DNA of 8,254 bases, from IMG/VR virus record IMGVR_UViG_2663763413_000004; one strand, given 5' to 3'. Origin of the DNA: a virus (Duplodnaviria; Heunggongvirae; Uroviricota; Caudoviricetes). Of this stretch, positions 1,389-8,254 are shown piece by piece (position 1 is the first letter of the stretch; every line of letters begins with the position of its first letter). The notes below the pieces were generated by a model. The model did no database searches. It had not been told where the DNA came from and worked only from the letters and a program-made list of their open reading frames with translations. The position numbers and the translations under genes are program-made.

Positions 1389-2501
1389 ATGAAAAAATTA
1401 ACAGTGGCAATTTCTGCTGTAGCTGCATCAGTACTGATGGCGATGTCTGCTCAGGCAGCTGAAATTTATAATAAAGACAGTAACAAGCTGGATCTATACG
1501 GGAAAGTTAATGCCAAGCACTACTTTTCCTCTAATGATGCAGATGATGGTGATACTACTTATGCCCGTCTTGGCTTCAAAGGTGAAACCCAAATCAACGA
1601 TCAACTGACTGGTTTCGGTCAGTGGGAATATGAATTCAAAGGCAACCGTGCTGAATCTCAAGGTTCTTCCAAAGACAAAACCCGTCTTGCATTTGCAGGC
1701 CTGAAATTTGGTGATTACGGCTCAATCGATTACGGCCGTAACTACGGTGTAGCATACGACATCGGTGCGTGGACTGACGTCCTGCCAGAATTCGGTGGTG
1801 ATACCTGGACCCAAACAGATGTGTTCATGACTGGTCGCACTACTGGTGTTGCAACTTATCGTAACAACGACTTCTTTGGTCTGGTCGATGGCCTGAACTT
1901 TGCTGCTCAGTATCAGGGTAAAAATGACCGCACTGACGTAACTGAAGCCAATGGTGATGGTTTCGGTTTCTCCACTACTTATGAGTATGAAGGATTCGGC
2001 GTGGGTGCAACCTATGCTAAATCAGATCGCACTGACGGTCAGGTCGCCTATGGTAAGAGCAAATTCAATGCCTCCGGCAAAAATGCGGAAGTATGGGCTG
2101 CAGGCCTGAAATATGATGCGAACAATATCTATCTGGCTACCACATATTCTGAAACTCAGAATATGGCTACCACATATTCTGAAACTCAGAATATGACCGT
2201 TTTTGGTAATAACCATATTGCAAACAAAGCACAAAACTTTGAAGCAGTAGCACAATATCAGTTTGACTTCGGTCTGCGACCATCTGTTGCTTACCTTCAG
2301 TCAAAAGGTAAAGACCTTGGTGTTCATGGTGACCGAGACTTAGTCAAGTATGTCGATGTCGGTGCTACTTACTACTTTAATAAAAACATGTCCACTTTTG
2401 TTGATTACAAAATCAACTTAATTGACGATAGTAAGTTTACCAAAACAGCTGGTATTGATACCGACGACATCGTCGCTGTAGGTCTGGTTTATCAGTTCTA
2501 A
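1389..2501 (+). CDS. nmpC: outer-membrane general porin, NmpC/OmpD/Lc family (prophage moron)
   Basis: 370 aa. Signal peptide [23 protein letters not shown] followed by AEIYNKD; conserved porin blocks ([49 protein letters not shown]) and the C-terminal VGLVYQF ending in Phe. Divergent from the lysis genes, as in DLP12. Symbol assigned from recall of the NmpC N-terminus. Confidence 0.9.
2135..2194 (+). repeat. perfect 30-bp in-frame tandem duplication inside the porin gene
   Basis: ggctaccacatattctgaaactcagaatat occurs at 2135..2164 and again, identically, at 2165..2194. It encodes the duplicated decapeptide [20 protein letters not shown]. Confidence 0.95.
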
Positions 2502-2520
2502 TCTGACTTACGAAAAAGAT

Positions 2521-2550
2521 ATGTTGCGGGAGGCTTTGCCTCCGCAACAT
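2521..2550 (-). terminator. 12-bp stem-loop; intrinsic terminator on the minus strand (tR'-like candidate downstream of Q)
   Basis: ATGTTGCGGGAGG / CCTCCGCAACAT with a 5-nt loop and one bulged G. On the minus strand it is followed by ATATCTTTTTCG; on the plus strand by ATAAGTGG, so no U-run there. Confidence 0.5.
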
Positions 2551-2689
2551 ATAAGTGGAGCCCTCAAGCCACTTCCTTTAGAAGCACTACCTTGCTTCTT
2601 ACTATATAAACCTTCTGTTATATATTACCCTTTATTTTGGGGGCGTTTCCACGCCCCATTTTTAATAACTTTTAGTAAACAATTGCATA
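2551..2689 (-). promoter_or_regulatory. candidate late promoter (PR') and Q-utilisation region downstream of Q
   Basis: In lambdoid phages PR' and qut lie immediately downstream of Q. This interval lies between the Q stop and a minus-strand terminator. No -35/-10 can be assigned confidently by eye. Confidence 0.3.
2639..2662 (+). terminator. intrinsic terminator for the porin transcript
   Basis: GGGGCGT / ACGCCCC stem (2640..2656) followed by ATTTTTAATAACTTTT on the plus strand. Confidence 0.6.
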
Positions 2690-3073
2690 TCAATTAGAAT
2701 TATTAGCAACGATATCCATATCTAACCGGATATCTAATGCCATTAACATCCCTTCAATTATGCCCTCAGCCTTCTGTAACCTTTTCCCGATATAACCATC
2801 CGAGCAGCAATGCTTACTTGCCAGTGACATGAATGTCATACCACATACATAATAATCTACTAATAAATCGTGTAAATCGCTGTTGTTCTTTTTCAGACGG
2901 GCCATGCACCCGCAAATGATCATCGCGTCATCGTCACAACATTGCGGGCGAGATTTTACTTTTGAAGGAATTAATCCCTTAAAACCGGCGGCAACGGACG
3001 ACCAGGTCACATCTTCATGATTATTAGCCGCCCACGCTCCCCAACGCTCAAGAACCATCTGAATATCACGCAT
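2690..3073 (-). CDS. quuD: late-gene antiterminator Q (phage 82 / QuuD type)
   Basis: [24 protein letters not shown]...[27 protein letters not shown]..., 127 aa from the ATG at 3073..3071, which has GGAG upstream. The ORF track extends it to 3088 ([10 protein letters not shown]); the shorter start matches the recalled QuuD length. Confidence 0.88.
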
Positions 3074-3158
3074 CAACTTACTCCACAAAAATCAGACCAG
3101 AACGCCAATTACAAGCAAAAATCAACAAAACAGTATTAGTTGATTGTTATCTCTGACT

Positions 3159-3299
3159 TCATACTCCTGCTCCTGTCAGGGTTTTGGCGTAATTCTTCAG
3201 TATTCGGTAATCGGTCAAAACAGAACCAGGAAAACGATATAAGCGCAGGCGCACCCAGCGGCGGCGAAGACGCTCTGCCATATAAGACTCAAACATCAT
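3159..3299 (-). CDS. ylcG: small nin-region protein YlcG (46 aa)
   Basis: Hand translation: [46 protein letters not shown]. Its ATG (3299..3297) overlaps the rusA stop as ATGA. Missing from the ORF track, presumably below its length cut-off. Identification from position and the recalled 46-aa length. Confidence 0.7.
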
Positions 3300-3662
3300 T
3301 CATCTCCCAGTTCGGTGATGGTCAGCTCCAGCTTCCCACCTTTGGTAACGGGCATCTTCACAACACGGTAATCAACGACCTGAATATCATCCAGCCAGAA
3401 ACCTGCTTTGGTGAGTGCGTCAAAAGCGGCTTTTTGCAGATTATCCAGGTCACGGCGACGGCGATCCGGCATGTGGCACTCAATACGGATTTTCACTCAC
3501 TGGCATAGCCAAGCCGATATCCAGCATTGCGTTTTTAATGATTCGGGCGACGTTATCGCAGTATGCCTGCCCCTCTGCGCTGACGTGCGTGCGCCCACGA
3601 TTATGGCGGTAATAGCGATTATTGCTCGGAGGCCAAGGTAATGTGATGCTGTAGGTATTCAC
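3296..3662 (-). pseudogene. rusA: Holliday-junction resolvase RusA, disrupted by a +4 frameshift
   Basis: ORF 3480..3662 encodes residues 1-55 ([24 protein letters not shown]...LAMPV) and then stops. ORF 3296..3496 encodes the rest ([26 protein letters not shown]...ELGDE) in another frame. Together they give the 120 aa of RusA. GTG start at 3662..3660 overlaps the ybcO stop (GTGA). Confidence 0.85.
3494..3501. repeat. perfect 4-bp tandem duplication (cact x2 on plus; GTGA-GTGA on the coding strand) causing the rusA frameshift
   Basis: Coding strand reads CCA GTG AGT GAA AAT CCG TAT TGA. Deleting one 4-mer gives CCA GTG AAA ATC CGT ATT GAG TGC CAC (PVKIRIECH), the expected RusA sequence. Confidence 0.9.
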
Positions 3663-3949
3663 GCCTCAATAACCCCCTCTTTCAACCAGATAACCTGTGT
3701 TCTCGCCATACCTTCCAGCGCGCATTCTTTTGCATATCCAGCGTCAACAAAATGCGTGCGACGGTCGATTTCGTCGTGGCAGGCAGAACATGCAATGGTG
3801 GCAATCAGGTCTGGCGGTTTGATACCGGTACCGCACAATCCAGCCAGCCGGATATGTGCCAGTACTGACGTTTCAGGATTGCCATTACATACGCCAGGGA
3901 TTCTTACCTGGCATTCCCGACCACGCGCTGCTTTTCTCAAATCAGCCAT
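3659..3949 (-). CDS. ybcO: YbcO-family (DUF1364) putative nuclease, nin region
   Basis: [35 protein letters not shown]...[11 protein letters not shown]..., 96 aa from the ATG at 3949, which has AGGAGG upstream. The ORF track's longer 109-aa start overlaps ninE. Confidence 0.82.
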
Positions 3950-4112
3950 GATTCCTCCTTGCTGCCAGTCGCAACCATTTTTTATCAACCAGGCTGGCGG
4001 TATACCCGAGCAGTGTTGGTATTTCGGATGGCTTCAGCTCAGGTTTACGCTTACGACGATTTGGTACTTTGTAGATGTGTCCGTTCATGATACGAATAAG
4101 CGGTGTAGCCAT
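3942..4112 (-). CDS. ninE: NinE (56 aa)
   Basis: Hand translation: [56 protein letters not shown]. Its ATG overlaps the ybcN stop (TAATG) and its 3' end overlaps the ybcO start by 8 nt. Not in the ORF track. Confidence 0.78.
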   Translation of the reverse strand: MATPLIRIMNGHIYKVPNRRKRKPELKPSEIPTLLGYTASLVDKKWLRLAARRNHG

Positions 4113-4567
4113 TACGCCTCCTGCTTGTCGCGCAGCAGCTGGAACTCGCAGCGCTGCGGAATAGTCAGGTGGCAGCCAATATTCATCGCCCAGGCTTCAA
4201 CCTTACACAGGAAGACATACATCTCTCCGGTATCAAGATCGGAGGTATGGCGTAACGACTGGATAGTAGTGATTTCGCCGGTTACGACATCAACCAGGTC
4301 CTTGGTTTCATAACCGAGGTATGTGTGTTTGAGAGCATCTTTTACCCATGCTGCGGTAGCGAACGATTTCCCCCTGCTGATGAGGTATTCACTGATTTCG
4401 CTGTACCACATATGGCTGAGTGCATTCTGGGAAAGACTGCGTTTCTCACGCCACGGTTTAAGCACCATGCGAAAGCATTTTCCGTCCTCCAGATAAGGCT
4501 GGATCTGCTGGCCGAAAGCGGTGAAGTTGCCGCGATGCAATTTGATGCCATCTTGTGGGAGGTTCAC
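4112..4567 (-). CDS. ybcN: YbcN-family nin-region protein (151 aa)
   Basis: 151-aa ORF with a GTG start at 4567 preceded by GGAGGTG. Matches the recalled length and position of DLP12 ybcN between ylcH and ninE. Confidence 0.8.
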
Positions 4568-4665
4568 GATTCACCTCCGCAGAGGCCAAACGCTGGATGC
4601 AAAAAATCGCAGGTGCATTTCTGCATCTGTGAATGGAGAAGATAGGTTGGATTGTATGTGCGCAT
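4564..4665 (-). CDS. ylcH: small protein YlcH-like (33 aa)
   Basis: Hand translation: [33 protein letters not shown]. Its stop overlaps the ybcN GTG (GTGA). Identified by position and the recalled 33-aa size only. Confidence 0.5.
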
Positions 4666-5050
4666 AAACGTCCCCGTTTAGCGCAGAAGTCACAGGAGTT
4701 GTTCAGGCTCCGGTGATACAATTATGGCGAATTGATTATTCATAATCAAACAAGATAAGGTCTCAAACTTCATGCAAGCCAAGATTTATTTCTGACAGAA
4801 TTATACAAAGAAGCTATTGGTCAGAATCTACTCGGACTGTAAAACATACGCATAACCTTAAGCTCTCACTTTAAGCATTGTTGAAATAATAGCCGTCAAG
4901 TACAACCTTAACCACGACTGGGATATTTCCCTAGCTACCACGAGTTGTACTGCTATTAAACTGCCGTTAAATTCAGTAAGAGAATTTCATCCGATAAGTC
5001 AAGGCATGTAAAACATAAAAATTAACAAGATATTATCATCTGCAACACTA

Positions 5051-6058
5051 TTGTATGGTATGTCAATGGCCATGTCGGTCGGGAGTTGTGCAACACCTGT
5101 CCAGACTAATTTTCCTGGTTACACCCCGGGTGCAGATATCATTAGTGTTTCACCCACCAGAAACCAGGTCGATCTCATTGGTGATGTTGTTTATTCCCAG
5201 ATAAAAGGAACTCGTTCTGTCAGACAGCTTCACATGTCAGTTCTTGTCCCGCGAACAAATGATTTAAAACCAGCCATTATTTATTATCCCGGCGGCGGAT
5301 TCATGTCTTCTGAACATGACAAATTTATTGAAATGAGAATGGCTCTGGCTGAAGCTGGTTTTGTTGTGGCCGCTGTAGAATACAGAACAATTCCTGATAC
5401 ATTTCCAGCACCAGTTGAGGATGGGAAAGCTGCAATACGTTACTTGAGAGAACATGCCAGCGATTATGGGATTGATCCTCAAAGAATCGGAGTTCTGGGT
5501 GACTCTGCCGGTGGATGGCTTGCCCAGATGATGGGAACTACAAATGGTGACAAAACCTTTAATAAAGGTGACTTTCTTCAGCAATCAGCAGATGTTCAGG
5601 CAGTTGCCACACTTTATGGGATTTCTGACTTGTTGAATATTGGCGAGGGGTTCCCTGAATCAGTGCAGGAGGTTCATCGATCTCCTGCCGTAACCGAAGC
5701 CTTAATGATCAATGGCCCTGCATTCAGAAGTTTTGCGGGAGCCCCCATAACAGCGTCAAAAGAAAAAGCGCTAAACGCCAGTCCAATCGGACATATGAAA
5801 GGAGTAAAACCCCCATTTCTTATTATGCATGGTAGCAAAGACACTCTGGTTTCACCTGAGCAAAGCGCCAAACTATTCAGGATGTTGAAGAAGAACGGCG
5901 ATAACGCTGAGTACGTTCTGGTAGAAGGGGCTGAGCATGGCGATAATACATGGTATCAGCCAATTATTATAAACAGAGTTGTTGAGTGGTTTACTAAAAA
6001 CCTGGGAACCCCCATAAAAACCGCTACCCAACAACAAAAAACAAACGCTGACCTGTAA
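5051..6058 (+). CDS. alpha/beta-hydrolase fold esterase/lipase (Abhydrolase_3 / HSL-like family); start uncertain
   Basis: Oxyanion-hole motif YYPGGGF, nucleophile elbow GDSAGG, YRTIPDTFPAPVEDG block, and candidate catalytic Asp (HGSKDTLV) and His (GAEHGD). The track start is TTG at 5051; ATGs follow at 5060, 5066 and 5072, none with a convincing Shine-Dalgarno. An in-frame ATG at 5006 is followed at once by TAA (see findings). Confidence 0.85.
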   Translation: MYGMSMAMSVGSCATPVQTNFPGYTPGADIISVSPTRNQVDLIGDVVYSQIKGTRSVRQLHMSVLVPRTNDLKPAIIYYPGGGFMSSEHDKFIEMRMALAEAGFVVAAVEYRTIPDTFPAPVEDGKAAIRYLREHASDYGIDPQRIGVLGDSAGGWLAQMMGTTNGDKTFNKGDFLQQSADVQAVATLYGISDLLNIGEGFPESVQEVHRSPAVTEALMINGPAFRSFAGAPITASKEKALNASPIGHMKGVKPPFLIMHGSKDTLVSPEQSAKLFRMLKKNGDNAEYVLVEGAEHGDNTWYQPIIINRVVEWFTKNLGTPIKTATQQQKTNADL

Positions 6059-6060
6059 AA

Positions 6061-6085
6061 AGCAGCCCGCACTTATGCGGGCTAA
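6061..6085. terminator. hairpin between the convergent esterase and recombinase genes; likely bidirectional terminator
   Basis: 8-bp stem AGCCCGCA / TGCGGGCT with loop CTTA. On the minus strand it is followed by a T-run (CTTTTTAC); on the plus strand by AACCTATTTC. Confidence 0.5.
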
Positions 6086-6095
6086 CCTATTTCAC

Positions 6096-6122
6096 TCGAT
6101 TCAAAAGAAATTATTTTTAATG
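6096..6122. repeat. direct repeat copy 1 (27 bp, 24/27 identical to copy 2; 15-bp perfect core aaattatttttaatg)
   Basis: tcgattcaaaagaaattatttttaatg, aligned by eye with 8169..8195. Lies between the recombinase stop and the convergent terminator. Confidence 0.45.
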
Positions 6123-6407
6123 GGGGCGTGACCAGCCTCTCGGTGCTCAGATACTTAATGAAGTGGAGTGGCATTCAGGCAAGAGGTTAACATCACCTGT
6201 TCGCCATAACCAAGCACGTGCACAAAGTTTGTTATCAGTGAATTGTTTTGTGATTGGGTATTGTTGAGCTACTAGAGCAAGAATGCCAACATCCAGTGGC
6301 AGTGCCTATAGTAAAACTATAGCTCAGGGCGCTTCGTTCAAGATAGTTAATATCATATTAGTCACTTTACTTTCATACCATAGCACGGTTGAAAAAGTGA
6401 TTATTAC

Positions 6408-7934
6408 TCAAAAATAAATCTCACCATCAACCATATATTTAAGAGTACTTATCGCCTGCTGGGCGGATATTACTTTCATTAAAGGATAGTGTTTAAAAAC
6501 AATGCCATTCATAAAATAGATATCACAGGTTTTATTATCTGTATTAATTATAATTTTTTCGAATATTTTATAGGCAAGTGTACGACATAGCTCTCGCCCA
6601 TTTTTACTGGTTAAATCAATAGCATGAAAATCACCAAGTGAACTCACCCCTTTACTCTTCAAAGTTTTTAATGATACCGAAGCCCTTCGTAATTCCTTAT
6701 CTAATAGTCTTATTTTCTCTGCTATAGCGGTAACTTCAGGCGCGACAGACAATGCAACGATTAAATTATTAATTTTCATCTGAAGCTCAATAATTTTTAA
6801 CTCTAAAGTTTCATTAGCATCTTTCTTGTTTTCAACTGGTTGAATTTTGCTACAATTAAAAAGCAATTCATTAATGATATTATAATCAACCAAATCTCTT
6901 TTTATTGATGGTCTGTCACATCGATGTAATCTTCTCATCGGACAAACATAATAGCCATGCAAACTTCCAGATACCGCATGAACAATCATGGTATTACCAC
7001 AAGCCTCACACTTCATAACTGTTCGAAGTAGATTTATTAGCATAGGATTCTTGCTACTATTGCTAATACCAAAAGGTGCCAACCGAATTTCCTGTACAGC
7101 GTAAAACAAATCATCTGATATGACTCTGGGATAATAGCCAGCGATTTCACTTATCCCTTTCCCTCTTGCACGATATGAAGGTACGCATATACCTATCAGA
7201 GCTTTATTCGCTAATAATTTTTCAATTACAGAAGGTCCCCATGCACTTTCTTTTCCTGAGAAATTCTTTACAGCATGATCATTTAAATACTTGGCTATTG
7301 CATTCAATGAGCGCCTTTCCATCCTGAGTTTAAAAATTAGCTCAATAGTTTTCACCCTGTCGGGGTCTGGAACAAAAGCCGTTCTTTTGTCATCCAATGA
7401 GAGCCATCTCGGACAAGAAGCCGTCATAATCGTGCCTGACTCCAGTGCATCCTGCCGTTTTTTCTTCCATGATAATTTAACCCGACTTGACTTTATCTCG
7501 CTTTCTTCATTTGCCCTTTGTGCTATAAGTATGGCTTTTATTAATGAATATGGCTCATTCAATGAGTCAATATTATAGACTGTATTATCGCAAAGAGTTA
7601 TAACATCAATACCGTGATTCAAAATCAATTTCAGACGCTCAATCGCTTCACCGACTTTTTCTCTTGAAAGTCTGTCCAGACTTTCAACTAACAATGTAGT
7701 CCCTGGCAATATATAACCATGTTCTATAGCATCTAAAAATTCCGAAAAAGCTCCTGATTGTGCATGCTTTCCATTGAATGCGCTTAACCCCAAATCTTCA
7801 TACGTTACGGTATCAAGGTAATAATCACTATTTACCTTTAGCCATTCAGTAATAAGCCTTCTCTGGCGGTTTAATGAATCACCAGACATCTGACCTGGTG
7901 ATGAAAATCGCATATATGCTATGGCTTTTTTCAT
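6408..7934 (-). CDS. ybcK: large serine recombinase (508 aa; resolvase-type catalytic domain, recombinase domain, zinc ribbon, coiled coil)
   Basis: N-terminal AIAYMRFSSPGQ...SLNRQ and LLVESLDRLSRE match resolvase/invertase catalytic motifs (Arg-x-Ser nucleophile region). C-terminal CEAC...YYVCPMRRLHRC is a zinc-ribbon-like cysteine cluster, followed by a predicted coiled coil. AGGTG lies 5 nt upstream of the ATG. Length and locus agree with my recollection of DLP12 YbcK; the symbol is recall-based. Confidence 0.85.
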   Translation of the reverse strand: MKKAIAYMRFSSPGQMSGDSLNRQRRLITEWLKVNSDYYLDTVTYEDLGLSAFNGKHAQSGAFSEFLDAIEHGYILPGTTLLVESLDRLSREKVGEAIERLKLILNHGIDVITLCDNTVYNIDSLNEPYSLIKAILIAQRANEESEIKSSRVKLSWKKKRQDALESGTIMTASCPRWLSLDDKRTAFVPDPDRVKTIELIFKLRMERRSLNAIAKYLNDHAVKNFSGKESAWGPSVIEKLLANKALIGICVPSYRARGKGISEIAGYYPRVISDDLFYAVQEIRLAPFGISNSSKNPMLINLLRTVMKCEACGNTMIVHAVSGSLHGYYVCPMRRLHRCDRPSIKRDLVDYNIINELLFNCSKIQPVENKKDANETLELKIIELQMKINNLIVALSVAPEVTAIAEKIRLLDKELRRASVSLKTLKSKGVSSLGDFHAIDLTSKNGRELCRTLAYKIFEKIIINTDNKTCDIYFMNGIVFKHYPLMKVISAQQAISTLKYMVDGEIYF

Positions 7935-8168
7935 GGTGACACCTGCTAAAGTATGCTTTTATAAACCTTAGTGGTGAGATATGATTTTTGTTTAATTTTT
8001 ATTTAAAAAGACAATTAAGGTCACATTATCTTGAATATACAACAATAATCGCATTGCAATTTTCTTACACCATAATCTTGAAAGCACAAAAGAATGAATA
8101 AAAACTAAAGACATTAACAAAAAGCATAAAACGAGGCCCATATAAATATACGAGCCTCCATATTTTAG

Positions 8169-8195
8169 TCGTTTAAAAACAAATTATTTTTAATG
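8169..8195. repeat. direct repeat copy 2 (pairs with 6096..6122)
   Basis: tcgtttaaaaacaaattatttttaatg, about 235 bp upstream of the recombinase start. Confidence 0.45.
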
Positions 8196-8254
8196 TGGTG
8201 TGCTTCGTGACAATAAATTAATAACCAACACACCGGCACAAATCAACATCATGC

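Follow-up and report, generated by a model that had tools for sequence, protein, structure and literature searches.

What occupies the interval between the recombinase gene ybcK and the small gene ylcH in DLP12-like prophages, and how variable is it? The question is raised by an 8254-base stretch of tailed-phage DNA (IMG/VR record IMGVR_UViG_2663763413_000004; hereafter the window), which is a DLP12-like lambdoid prophage in reverse orientation relative to Escherichia coli K-12 and is 100% identical to E. coli UPEC132 from position 3497 to its end. A first-pass annotation, made from the letters alone, had placed ybcL and ybcM in this slot in K-12 and had reported different cargo at 4666-6407 of the window. 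This segment is, very probably, the nin-proximal end of a hypervariable accessory (moron or defence) region of DLP12-like lambdoid phages, situated between P/ren and the nin module.

This placement in K-12 was correct, as NC_000913.3 annotates ybcK-ybcL-ybcM-ylcH-ybcN. Blastn against this genome matched window positions 2460-4750 at 95.1% identity and 6369-8254 at 96.2%, with zero match in between, i.e., a clean replacement of 1813 bp of K-12 by 1618 bp of the window (4751-6368). The 95% match spans ylcH, the first gene of a conserved nin-type module (ylcH-ybcN-ninE-ybcO-rusA-ylcG-quuD). As had been described, the slot holds one alpha/beta-hydrolase gene on the opposite strand, seen as a plus-strand open reading frame (ORF) that runs from 5051 or 5066 to 6058; it is referred to below as the esterase gene and, together with its leader, as the esterase cassette. 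A drop in base composition had been placed near 4700..4740, and the GC (guanine plus cytosine) profile per 200 bp indeed fell from 0.535 (4401-4600) and 0.51 (4501-4700) to 0.405 (4601-4800) and 0.36 (4701-4900), with the step on the homology breakpoint at 4750. By module, the GC content was 48.4% in the nin module (2690-4750), 42.8% in the cassette (4751-6062), 37.5% in its leader and 35.9% in ybcK, and simple arithmetic on these values puts the gap between nin module and cassette at about three standard errors. The AT-rich spacer of about 390 bp can be refined: an ORF-free stretch of approximately 385-400 bp is present, but it is composite, being made up of 85 bp of conserved backbone (4666-4750), a true non-coding leader of 264 bp and 36-51 bp of former esterase signal-peptide codons.

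The variability of this position was examined in 80 IMG/VR contigs encoding the closest YbcN relatives, and further forms were obtained from E. coli with a ybcN-to-ybcK query, sampled down the match ranking. The ylcH junction was present in 79 of the 80 contigs, and an identical left junction was found in six E. coli forms. Altogether, 81 junctions from viral contigs and E. coli loci represented 29 distinct sequences and 21 unrelated upstream contexts. Across the 21 contexts, no column was conserved upstream of -84 (counted from the ylcH ATG), and nearly all columns were conserved from -84 onward. In E. coli genomes and viral contigs, P/ren lay on one side of the interval and ylcH-ybcN on the other. 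The right junctions were staggered (6062, 6130 in locus L006, 6342 in O157 and 6369 in K-12), and the replication-side joints fell in the first codons of ren, after ren or at the 3' end of P. Among the forms were one in which a P22AR-C gene and a 260-amino-acid ORF come after ybcK, an O157:H7 form with merely 254 unique bp, a form in strain EH41 with two small ORFs and neither ybcK nor emrE, and a form in which a 3.5-kb inverse-autotransporter gene separates the esterase gene from P. Many forms with the same ylcH junction were devoid of ybcK; ybcK, ylcJ and emrE are optional cargo, and ren is often variable. The idea of a variable cargo site was therefore right about the site and too narrow about its extent, as ybcK, ylcJ, emrE and often ren vary too. 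The data support a variable region that is wider than the ybcK-ylcH slot and spans the whole interval between P/ren and the fixed edge at 4750.

A census of 5426 complete E. coli genomes, in which the slot was counted when at least 80% covered, detected the slot sequence of the window in 606 genomes and the esterase start region in 681 (approximately 11-12%). The esterase gene stood next to the autotransporter gene in 443 genomes, next to ybcK, as in the window, in 172, and directly next to emrE in two. The K-12 ybcL-ybcM segment occurred in 3210 genomes (673 K-12-like at 99% identity or more and 2583 with an allele of about 92%), and it can coexist with the esterase gene in one genome, for example in strain 2/0. 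In one genome inspected, the ~92% allele was located at the fliE-yedF locus as emrE-ybcL-ybcM without ybcK. The count of 3210 hence overstates the use of the slot by ybcL-ybcM, and placing all 2583 copies at fliE-yedF is an extrapolation from that one genome. The block in question (NZ_CP124339.1, locus L008, 7022-8881) lies beside an IS200/IS605 transposase gene and prophage debris.

The wide distribution of the esterase cassette (606-681 genomes) and its presence in functional phages might be taken to mean that the esterase arrangement is ancestral and that ybcL-ybcM of K-12 is a one-off replacement, with no general cargo site at all. However, the cassette is found in just 11-12% of the genomes and has three right-hand contexts, the window form retains relics of an older neighbour, and at least 21 unrelated occupants share the same junction. 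The esterase was thus not the ancestral, conserved occupant that would have contradicted the first-pass annotation, and we consider such a history scarcely conceivable.

Several known defence systems were recognized among the other occupants. A complete Kiwa system (KwaA, E 5e-88; KwaB, E 7e-149) was identified in the slot of a viral contig (L021, 2142-3749), and PD-Lambda-1 (5e-198) was found next to an HD-domain protein (L070, 3165-6574). Additionally, the slot contained a 650-amino-acid NACHT NTPase (L038, 4823-6775), a PRTase-CE protein with a NADAR protein (L018, 4692-6325), and a Pua-like/metallophosphatase protein with a HAD hydrolase (L020, 3930-6409; PADLOC 'Hydrolase', 4.5e-57). A weak HEC-07 match, a VasI-like protein and Bro-N/P22AR-C antirepressor-like proteins were also found, RefSeq annotates a HEPN protein at the slot in some genomes, and several slot proteins gave no match in the same defence and family profile scans; many of the remaining occupants had no hit to a known defence system. 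With cargo this diverse and recognized defence systems among it, the position behaves like the defence or moron hotspots of P2 and P4. The inverse autotransporter (intimin/invasin-like, 1183 amino acids; NZ_CP019008.1, locus L005, 7984-11535) is encoded convergently with the esterase, 36 bp apart, and its gene replaces ren-emrE-ybcK in the 443 genomes, including records named O25b:H4-ST131.

A literature search returned no paper defining this hotspot in lambdoid phages, only the P2/P4 hotspots and a brief mention of lambdoid phages, although the latest (2025) work on prophage defence was not fully covered. We put forward, tentatively and as a bolder claim that we think somewhat doubtful, that the P/ren-to-ylcH interval of DLP12-like (Bievrevirus-type) phages is an uncharted hotspot of defence and host interaction, with a fixed edge anchored on a promoter that would maintain expression of the nin module irrespective of the upstream cargo, and with unannotated occupants that include new anti-phage or colonisation functions. 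Candidates for such functions would be the EH41-type gene pair, the 260-amino-acid protein beside P22AR-C and the PRTase-CE/NADAR pair, and perhaps ybcL-ybcM or the esterase/inverse-autotransporter pair.

What holds the nin-side edge at a single base? On the minus strand, the promoter scan found a -35-like TTGATT (4749-4744) and, after an N17 spacer, a -10-like CATAAT (4726-4721). A palindrome, TTGATT-N6-AATCAA, lies at 4732-4749, and a GGGGA Shine-Dalgarno sequence stands ahead of the ylcH ATG, 3' of a hairpin at 4715-4691. Both hexamers and the second half-site of the palindrome are conserved, and the bases between them vary. The common form of the hairpin has a folding energy of -20.3 kcal/mol (z -3.07). 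The window lineage carries a C-to-A change on the plus strand (CACAGGAG vs the usual CACCGGAG), and in this variant the predicted stability falls to -14.1 kcal/mol (z -1.16). The hairpin would stand at the start of the putative ylcH transcript. Scanning 4400-6600 against Rfam (E <= 1) gave zero matches. We infer that 4666-4750 is a putative sigma-70 promoter with a 5' untranslated region needed for the nin module; cargo would then always end just upstream of 4750 because the promoter-like unit must be kept.

Several points weigh against this explanation. The hexamers score 9/12, and four such hits were obtained where 3.9 are expected by chance in the AT-rich region; the hexamer score alone is no better than chance, and the case for a promoter accordingly depends on conservation. 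No compensatory changes were found in the hairpin, and a divergent class forms no comparable hairpin. The constitutive RpoD list from genomic SELEX (systematic evolution of ligands by exponential enrichment) contains sites upstream of ybcK and ybcL and none at ybcM/ylcH (PMC3946193). A literature search for ylcH/ybcN yielded no transcription data. The fixed boundary may equally be the edge of a conserved module and not a selected promoter. Both SELEX sites, upstream of ybcK and ybcL, are flagged as H-NS associated (PMC3946193); the corresponding K-12 intergenic regions are emrE-ybcK (locus L003, 2649-2902) and ybcK-ybcL (L003, 4430-4893). Silencing of the AT-rich cargo block by H-NS is suggested. 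The palindrome was also considered as an immunity operator of the phage, and this was rejected, as 25.7 kb of the prophage and the 13.3-kb 4A7 locus each contain a single copy.

A junction that falls exactly on a conserved palindrome, with a recombinase gene adjoining the slot in K-12, O157, the window and phages 4A7 and Perceval, could also be produced by YbcK, if this enzyme catalysed an integron-like, site-specific exchange of cassettes at TTGATT-N6-AATCAA. YbcK has three domains above threshold, PF00239 (Resolvase), PF07508 (Recombinase) and PF13408 (Zn_ribbon_recom). Short inverted repeats bracket most of its gene, at 6392-6407/7818-7833 (16 nt, 94%) and at 6410-6426/7972-7988 (17 nt, 82%; core TGGTGAGAT / ATCTCACCA), and these may be chance occurrences in AT-rich DNA. 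However, the same junction and palindrome are found in forms without ybcK, including the inverse-autotransporter, EH41, Kiwa and PD-Lambda-1 forms and others. The other cassette ends are staggered and have no second palindrome, and the single copy of the palindrome in the prophage and in the 4A7 locus also speaks against repeated sites. The relics at 6063-6301 bear the usual marks of illegitimate joining and do not suggest a precise site-specific exchange. A repeat search of the window detected no cognate YbcK sites flanking a mobilised or invertible segment at the cassette ends, and no inverted ybcK orientation was seen among the sampled genomes. Exchange by YbcK is thus regarded as extremely improbable, and the hypervariable region with one fixed edge is retained as the explanation.

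In the IMG/VR loci, the esterase cassette always occupied -1312..-1 from the ylcH junction, whichever neighbour it had (emrE, the P22AR relic plus ybcK, or the inverse autotransporter). Ends that are discrete and constant in three contexts (4751 and 6062), with a composition unlike the flanks, could indicate an autonomous small mobile element, such as the passenger of an insertion sequence or transposon, inserted into the phage. Yet the cassette encodes no transposase, neither terminal inverted repeats nor a target-site duplication exist at 4751/6062, and in the loci examined it always abuts the ylcH junction and never lies elsewhere in the chromosome. This origin is very unlikely, albeit a little less so than exchange by YbcK.

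The DNA between the cassette and ybcK instead records how this layout was assembled. Segment 6063-6129 is 77% identical over 52 nt to the emrE terminator region at 8147-8198 (direct repeat D1) and includes the last emrE codons (Pro-His-stop) and a terminator hairpin at 6063-6084. In three viral loci (L069, L073 and L074), this segment is the true 3' end of emrE abutting the esterase gene, a form shared by two complete genomes. The hairpin lies directly 3' of the esterase stop codon and has a poor T-tract on the plus strand; it is part of the emrE relic. The adjoining segment, 6130-6301, is 81.6% identical at the nucleotide level to an intact gene region in L006 (tblastn, E 2e-17), the protein of which belongs to Pfam P22_AR_C. 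In the window copy, the start codon is gone, a frameshift and a stop interrupt the reading frame, and the gene is truncated near codon 58. With this relic of an earlier neighbour, the arrangement in the window is a derived one. In the simplest history, a phage with emrE-esterase-ylcH would have been joined illegitimately to a phage with emrE-ylcJ-ybcK-P22AR-C-...-ylcH. This join, with the P22AR-C gene on one side and the terminal emrE codons on the other, would have left both relics behind.

In general terms, the proposed process would work as follows. On the nin side every form ends at window position 4750, and on the replication side the joints are staggered. New cargo would enter via rare illegitimate joins; homologous recombination in the conserved flanks would then pass it between lambdoid phages and prophages that share a host. 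Recombination of lambdoid phages with DLP12 and with other defective prophages, via Red-beta and aided by Orf and Rap, was demonstrated experimentally (De Paepe et al. 2014, PMC3945230). YbcN is an Orf-family protein (PMC4118853), an Orf/NinB homologue, and the same prophage carries exo, bet and gam. Since such recombination has been shown and the Red genes and ybcN are present in the same prophage, homologous spread through the flanks fits these observations.

The product of the esterase gene belongs to Pfam PF20434 (BD-FAE; E 6e-45, 153.9 bits vs a cut-off of 26.8) and also matches Abhydrolase_3 (81.3 vs 25). An alignment of 13 homologues, the window copy included, shows Ser164 (in GDSAGG), Asp276 and His308 to be invariant. 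Among solved structures, the protein is closest to Lip_vut4 (6nkf), a bifunctional GH43-CE protein, an acetyl-xylan esterase and a carbohydrate esterase. Its nearest relatives in sequence are encoded on the chromosomes of plant-associated Enterobacterales; at 63-80% identity, chromosomal relatives occur in Pectobacterium, Dickeya, Pantoea, Kluyvera, Klebsiella and others. One relative is labelled 'Ferulate esterase' by its source, and a phenolic-acid decarboxylase gene precedes a 75% homologue by 17 bp, with a LysR regulator adjoining. Considering the BD-FAE family, the decarboxylase neighbour and the 'Ferulate esterase' label, the protein is probably secreted and active outside the cytoplasm, as a feruloyl/hydroxycinnamoyl or an acetyl esterase; the substrate is read from family and neighbourhood alone, which counts against so specific an assignment. 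A relic of the decarboxylase gene was sought in the 264-bp leader and none was found, the nucleotide similarity to the chromosomal homologue being confined to 5156-6007. The leader (4751-5014) has stops in all six frames, and a scan of it gave as the best promoter candidate for the esterase gene an 8/12 site with an extended -10, TGaAATAAT, at 4882-4890, a low score that likewise counts against a promoter of its own.

All of the esterase homologues have an N-terminal signal peptide, most of them without a lipobox cysteine. Read by eye, the original signal peptide of the window gene, MKINKILSSATLLYGMSMAMSVGSC, is composed of MKINK, ILSSATLLYGMSMAMSV and G-S-C, with a lipobox-like VGSC, and an esterase made with it would probably be lipid-anchored. 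In the window, the start codon at 5015-5017 is ATA, whereas it is ATG in other genomes. The ATA version of a 61-mer across this site was found in four of the 681 genomes (UPEC132, YP3, GN02350 and N50); in the remaining genomes, the hydrolase coding sequence is annotated across the site. As a consequence of the change, the RefSeq start was moved to a downstream ATG (5066) within the signal peptide, and the annotated protein loses its signal peptide and keeps an intact mature domain. ATA initiates translation very poorly in E. coli. Little esterase would therefore be expected from the window, and none of it would be exported. The change to ATA appears to be a recent inactivation and no general property of the cassette.

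The features of the window are listed in the following table.

Table 1. Features of the window between the lysis genes and emrE, with position, strand and basis of assignment.
Feature	Position	Strand	Basis or remark
Lysozyme and holin, NmpC/OmpC-like porin, quuD, ylcG, rusA, ybcO, ninE, ybcN			Gene order of the window up to ylcH
ylcH	4564..4665	-	33-codon ORF; annotated in UPEC132 and K-12
Conserved boundary unit	4666..4750	-	Homology of all forms stops at 4750
Leader of the esterase cassette, AT-rich, non-coding	4751..5014	+	37.5% GC
Esterase gene, BD-FAE / Abhydrolase_3 family	5015..6058	+	347 codons; Pfam, PDB relatives, conserved catalytic residues
Esterase cassette, exchangeable module, 1312 bp	4751..6062	+	Identical two ends in three contexts
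emrE 3'-end relic and terminator hairpin	6063..6129	-	Direct repeat D1, terminator scan, viral loci
P22AR-C gene relic, decayed 5' fragment	6130..6301	-	Nucleotide identity to L006, tblastn, Pfam
ybcK 3' flank	6302..6407	-	Homology to other ybcK forms restarts at staggered points
ybcK, large serine recombinase, 508 amino acids	6408..7934	-	Pfam domains
ylcJ, emrE terminator region and emrE 3' end	7992..8254	-	UPEC132 and K-12 annotation

Within the last row, ylcJ covers 7992-8141, the emrE terminator region covers 8147-8198 and the emrE 3' end begins at 8190, all inside the low-GC accessory block. Compared with every complete E. coli genome searched, the window reached 98.8% identity at best, gaps included, and it differs by three perfect tandem duplications. 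CACGTTG x2 (251-264) frameshifts the lysozyme gene rrrD, a 30-bp unit x2 (2134-2193) adds 10 residues in frame to the NmpC/OmpC-like porin, and TCAC x2 (3493-3500) frameshifts rusA. A single mismatch to the complete genomes is located at window base 5.

Taken as a whole, the finding is one of ordinary lambdoid mosaicism, and public genomes and phage records already contain both the sequence and the layout. What is added is the exact definition of the hotspot, with one edge placed at the -35 of the conserved promoter-like unit, the defence systems among its occupants and the assembly history of the window version. The interval offers a well-defined address for mining lambdoid prophages, with a boundary exact to the base, conserved flanks, and Kiwa and PD-Lambda-1 beside unannotated genes. 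It also means that emrE, ybcK, ybcL and ybcM of K-12 are interchangeable phage cargo and not fixed parts of DLP12. Moreover, a putative secreted carbohydrate esterase, often together with an inverse-autotransporter adhesin, circulates on active phages in extraintestinal and gut E. coli.

How, finally, does this locus compare with known systems? With DLP12 of K-12 it shares flanks that are 95-96% identical, the same fixed ylcH junction and the same low-GC block emrE-ylcJ-ybcK. The two differ in cargo, as K-12 carries the PEBP-family periplasmic protein YbcL and the AraC-type YbcM on the early strand whereas the window carries one esterase gene on the opposite strand, and in the right junction, which is 6369 in K-12 and 6062/6130 in the window. 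YbcL variants of uropathogenic E. coli suppress neutrophil migration (PMC4810123). Phages 4A7 and Perceval (genus Bievrevirus) have the gene order of the window, ren-emrE-ylcJ-ybcK-esterase(+)-ybcN..quuD-porin-lysis, a layout that is therefore consistent with phage viability. The cassette is 98.5-98.6% identical in eight records of isolated phages, including 4A7, Perceval, Lambda_4C10, D2, 1W, 3W and PhiR47_2. The isolated phages keep the ATG of the esterase gene, annotated with 347 codons, whereas the window has ATA and the three tandem duplications elsewhere. With the BD-FAE and carbohydrate esterases (PF20434; PDB 6nkf, 6mly, 6xyc and 6tkx), the protein shares the alpha/beta-hydrolase fold, the GDSAGG nucleophile motif and the conserved Asp and His; unlike them, the putative esterase of the cassette is phage-borne and has an N-terminal signal peptide with a lipobox-like motif.

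Morons, such as bor and lom of lambda, are a concept of comparative lambdoid genomics. The esterase gene resembles them in being a single accessory gene of different composition and opposite orientation, placed between conserved phage genes and beside a terminator hairpin; the compositional difference is evident from the cassette (42.8% GC; leader 37.5%) against the nin module (48.4%). It differs in that its candidates for a promoter of its own, the classical mark of a moron, score at most 8/12 and the adjacent hairpin belongs to the emrE relic. The P2/P4 defence hotspots (Rousset et al. 2022, PMC9122126; Vassallo et al. 2022, PMC9519451) likewise have conserved phage flanks and diverse, swappable cargo with known defence systems among the occupants. 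Here, however, the phage family is another one, the position is between the replication and nin modules, one edge is exact to the base and the other uneven, and much of the cargo (esterase, autotransporter, YbcL/YbcM and EmrE) is not recognisably defensive.

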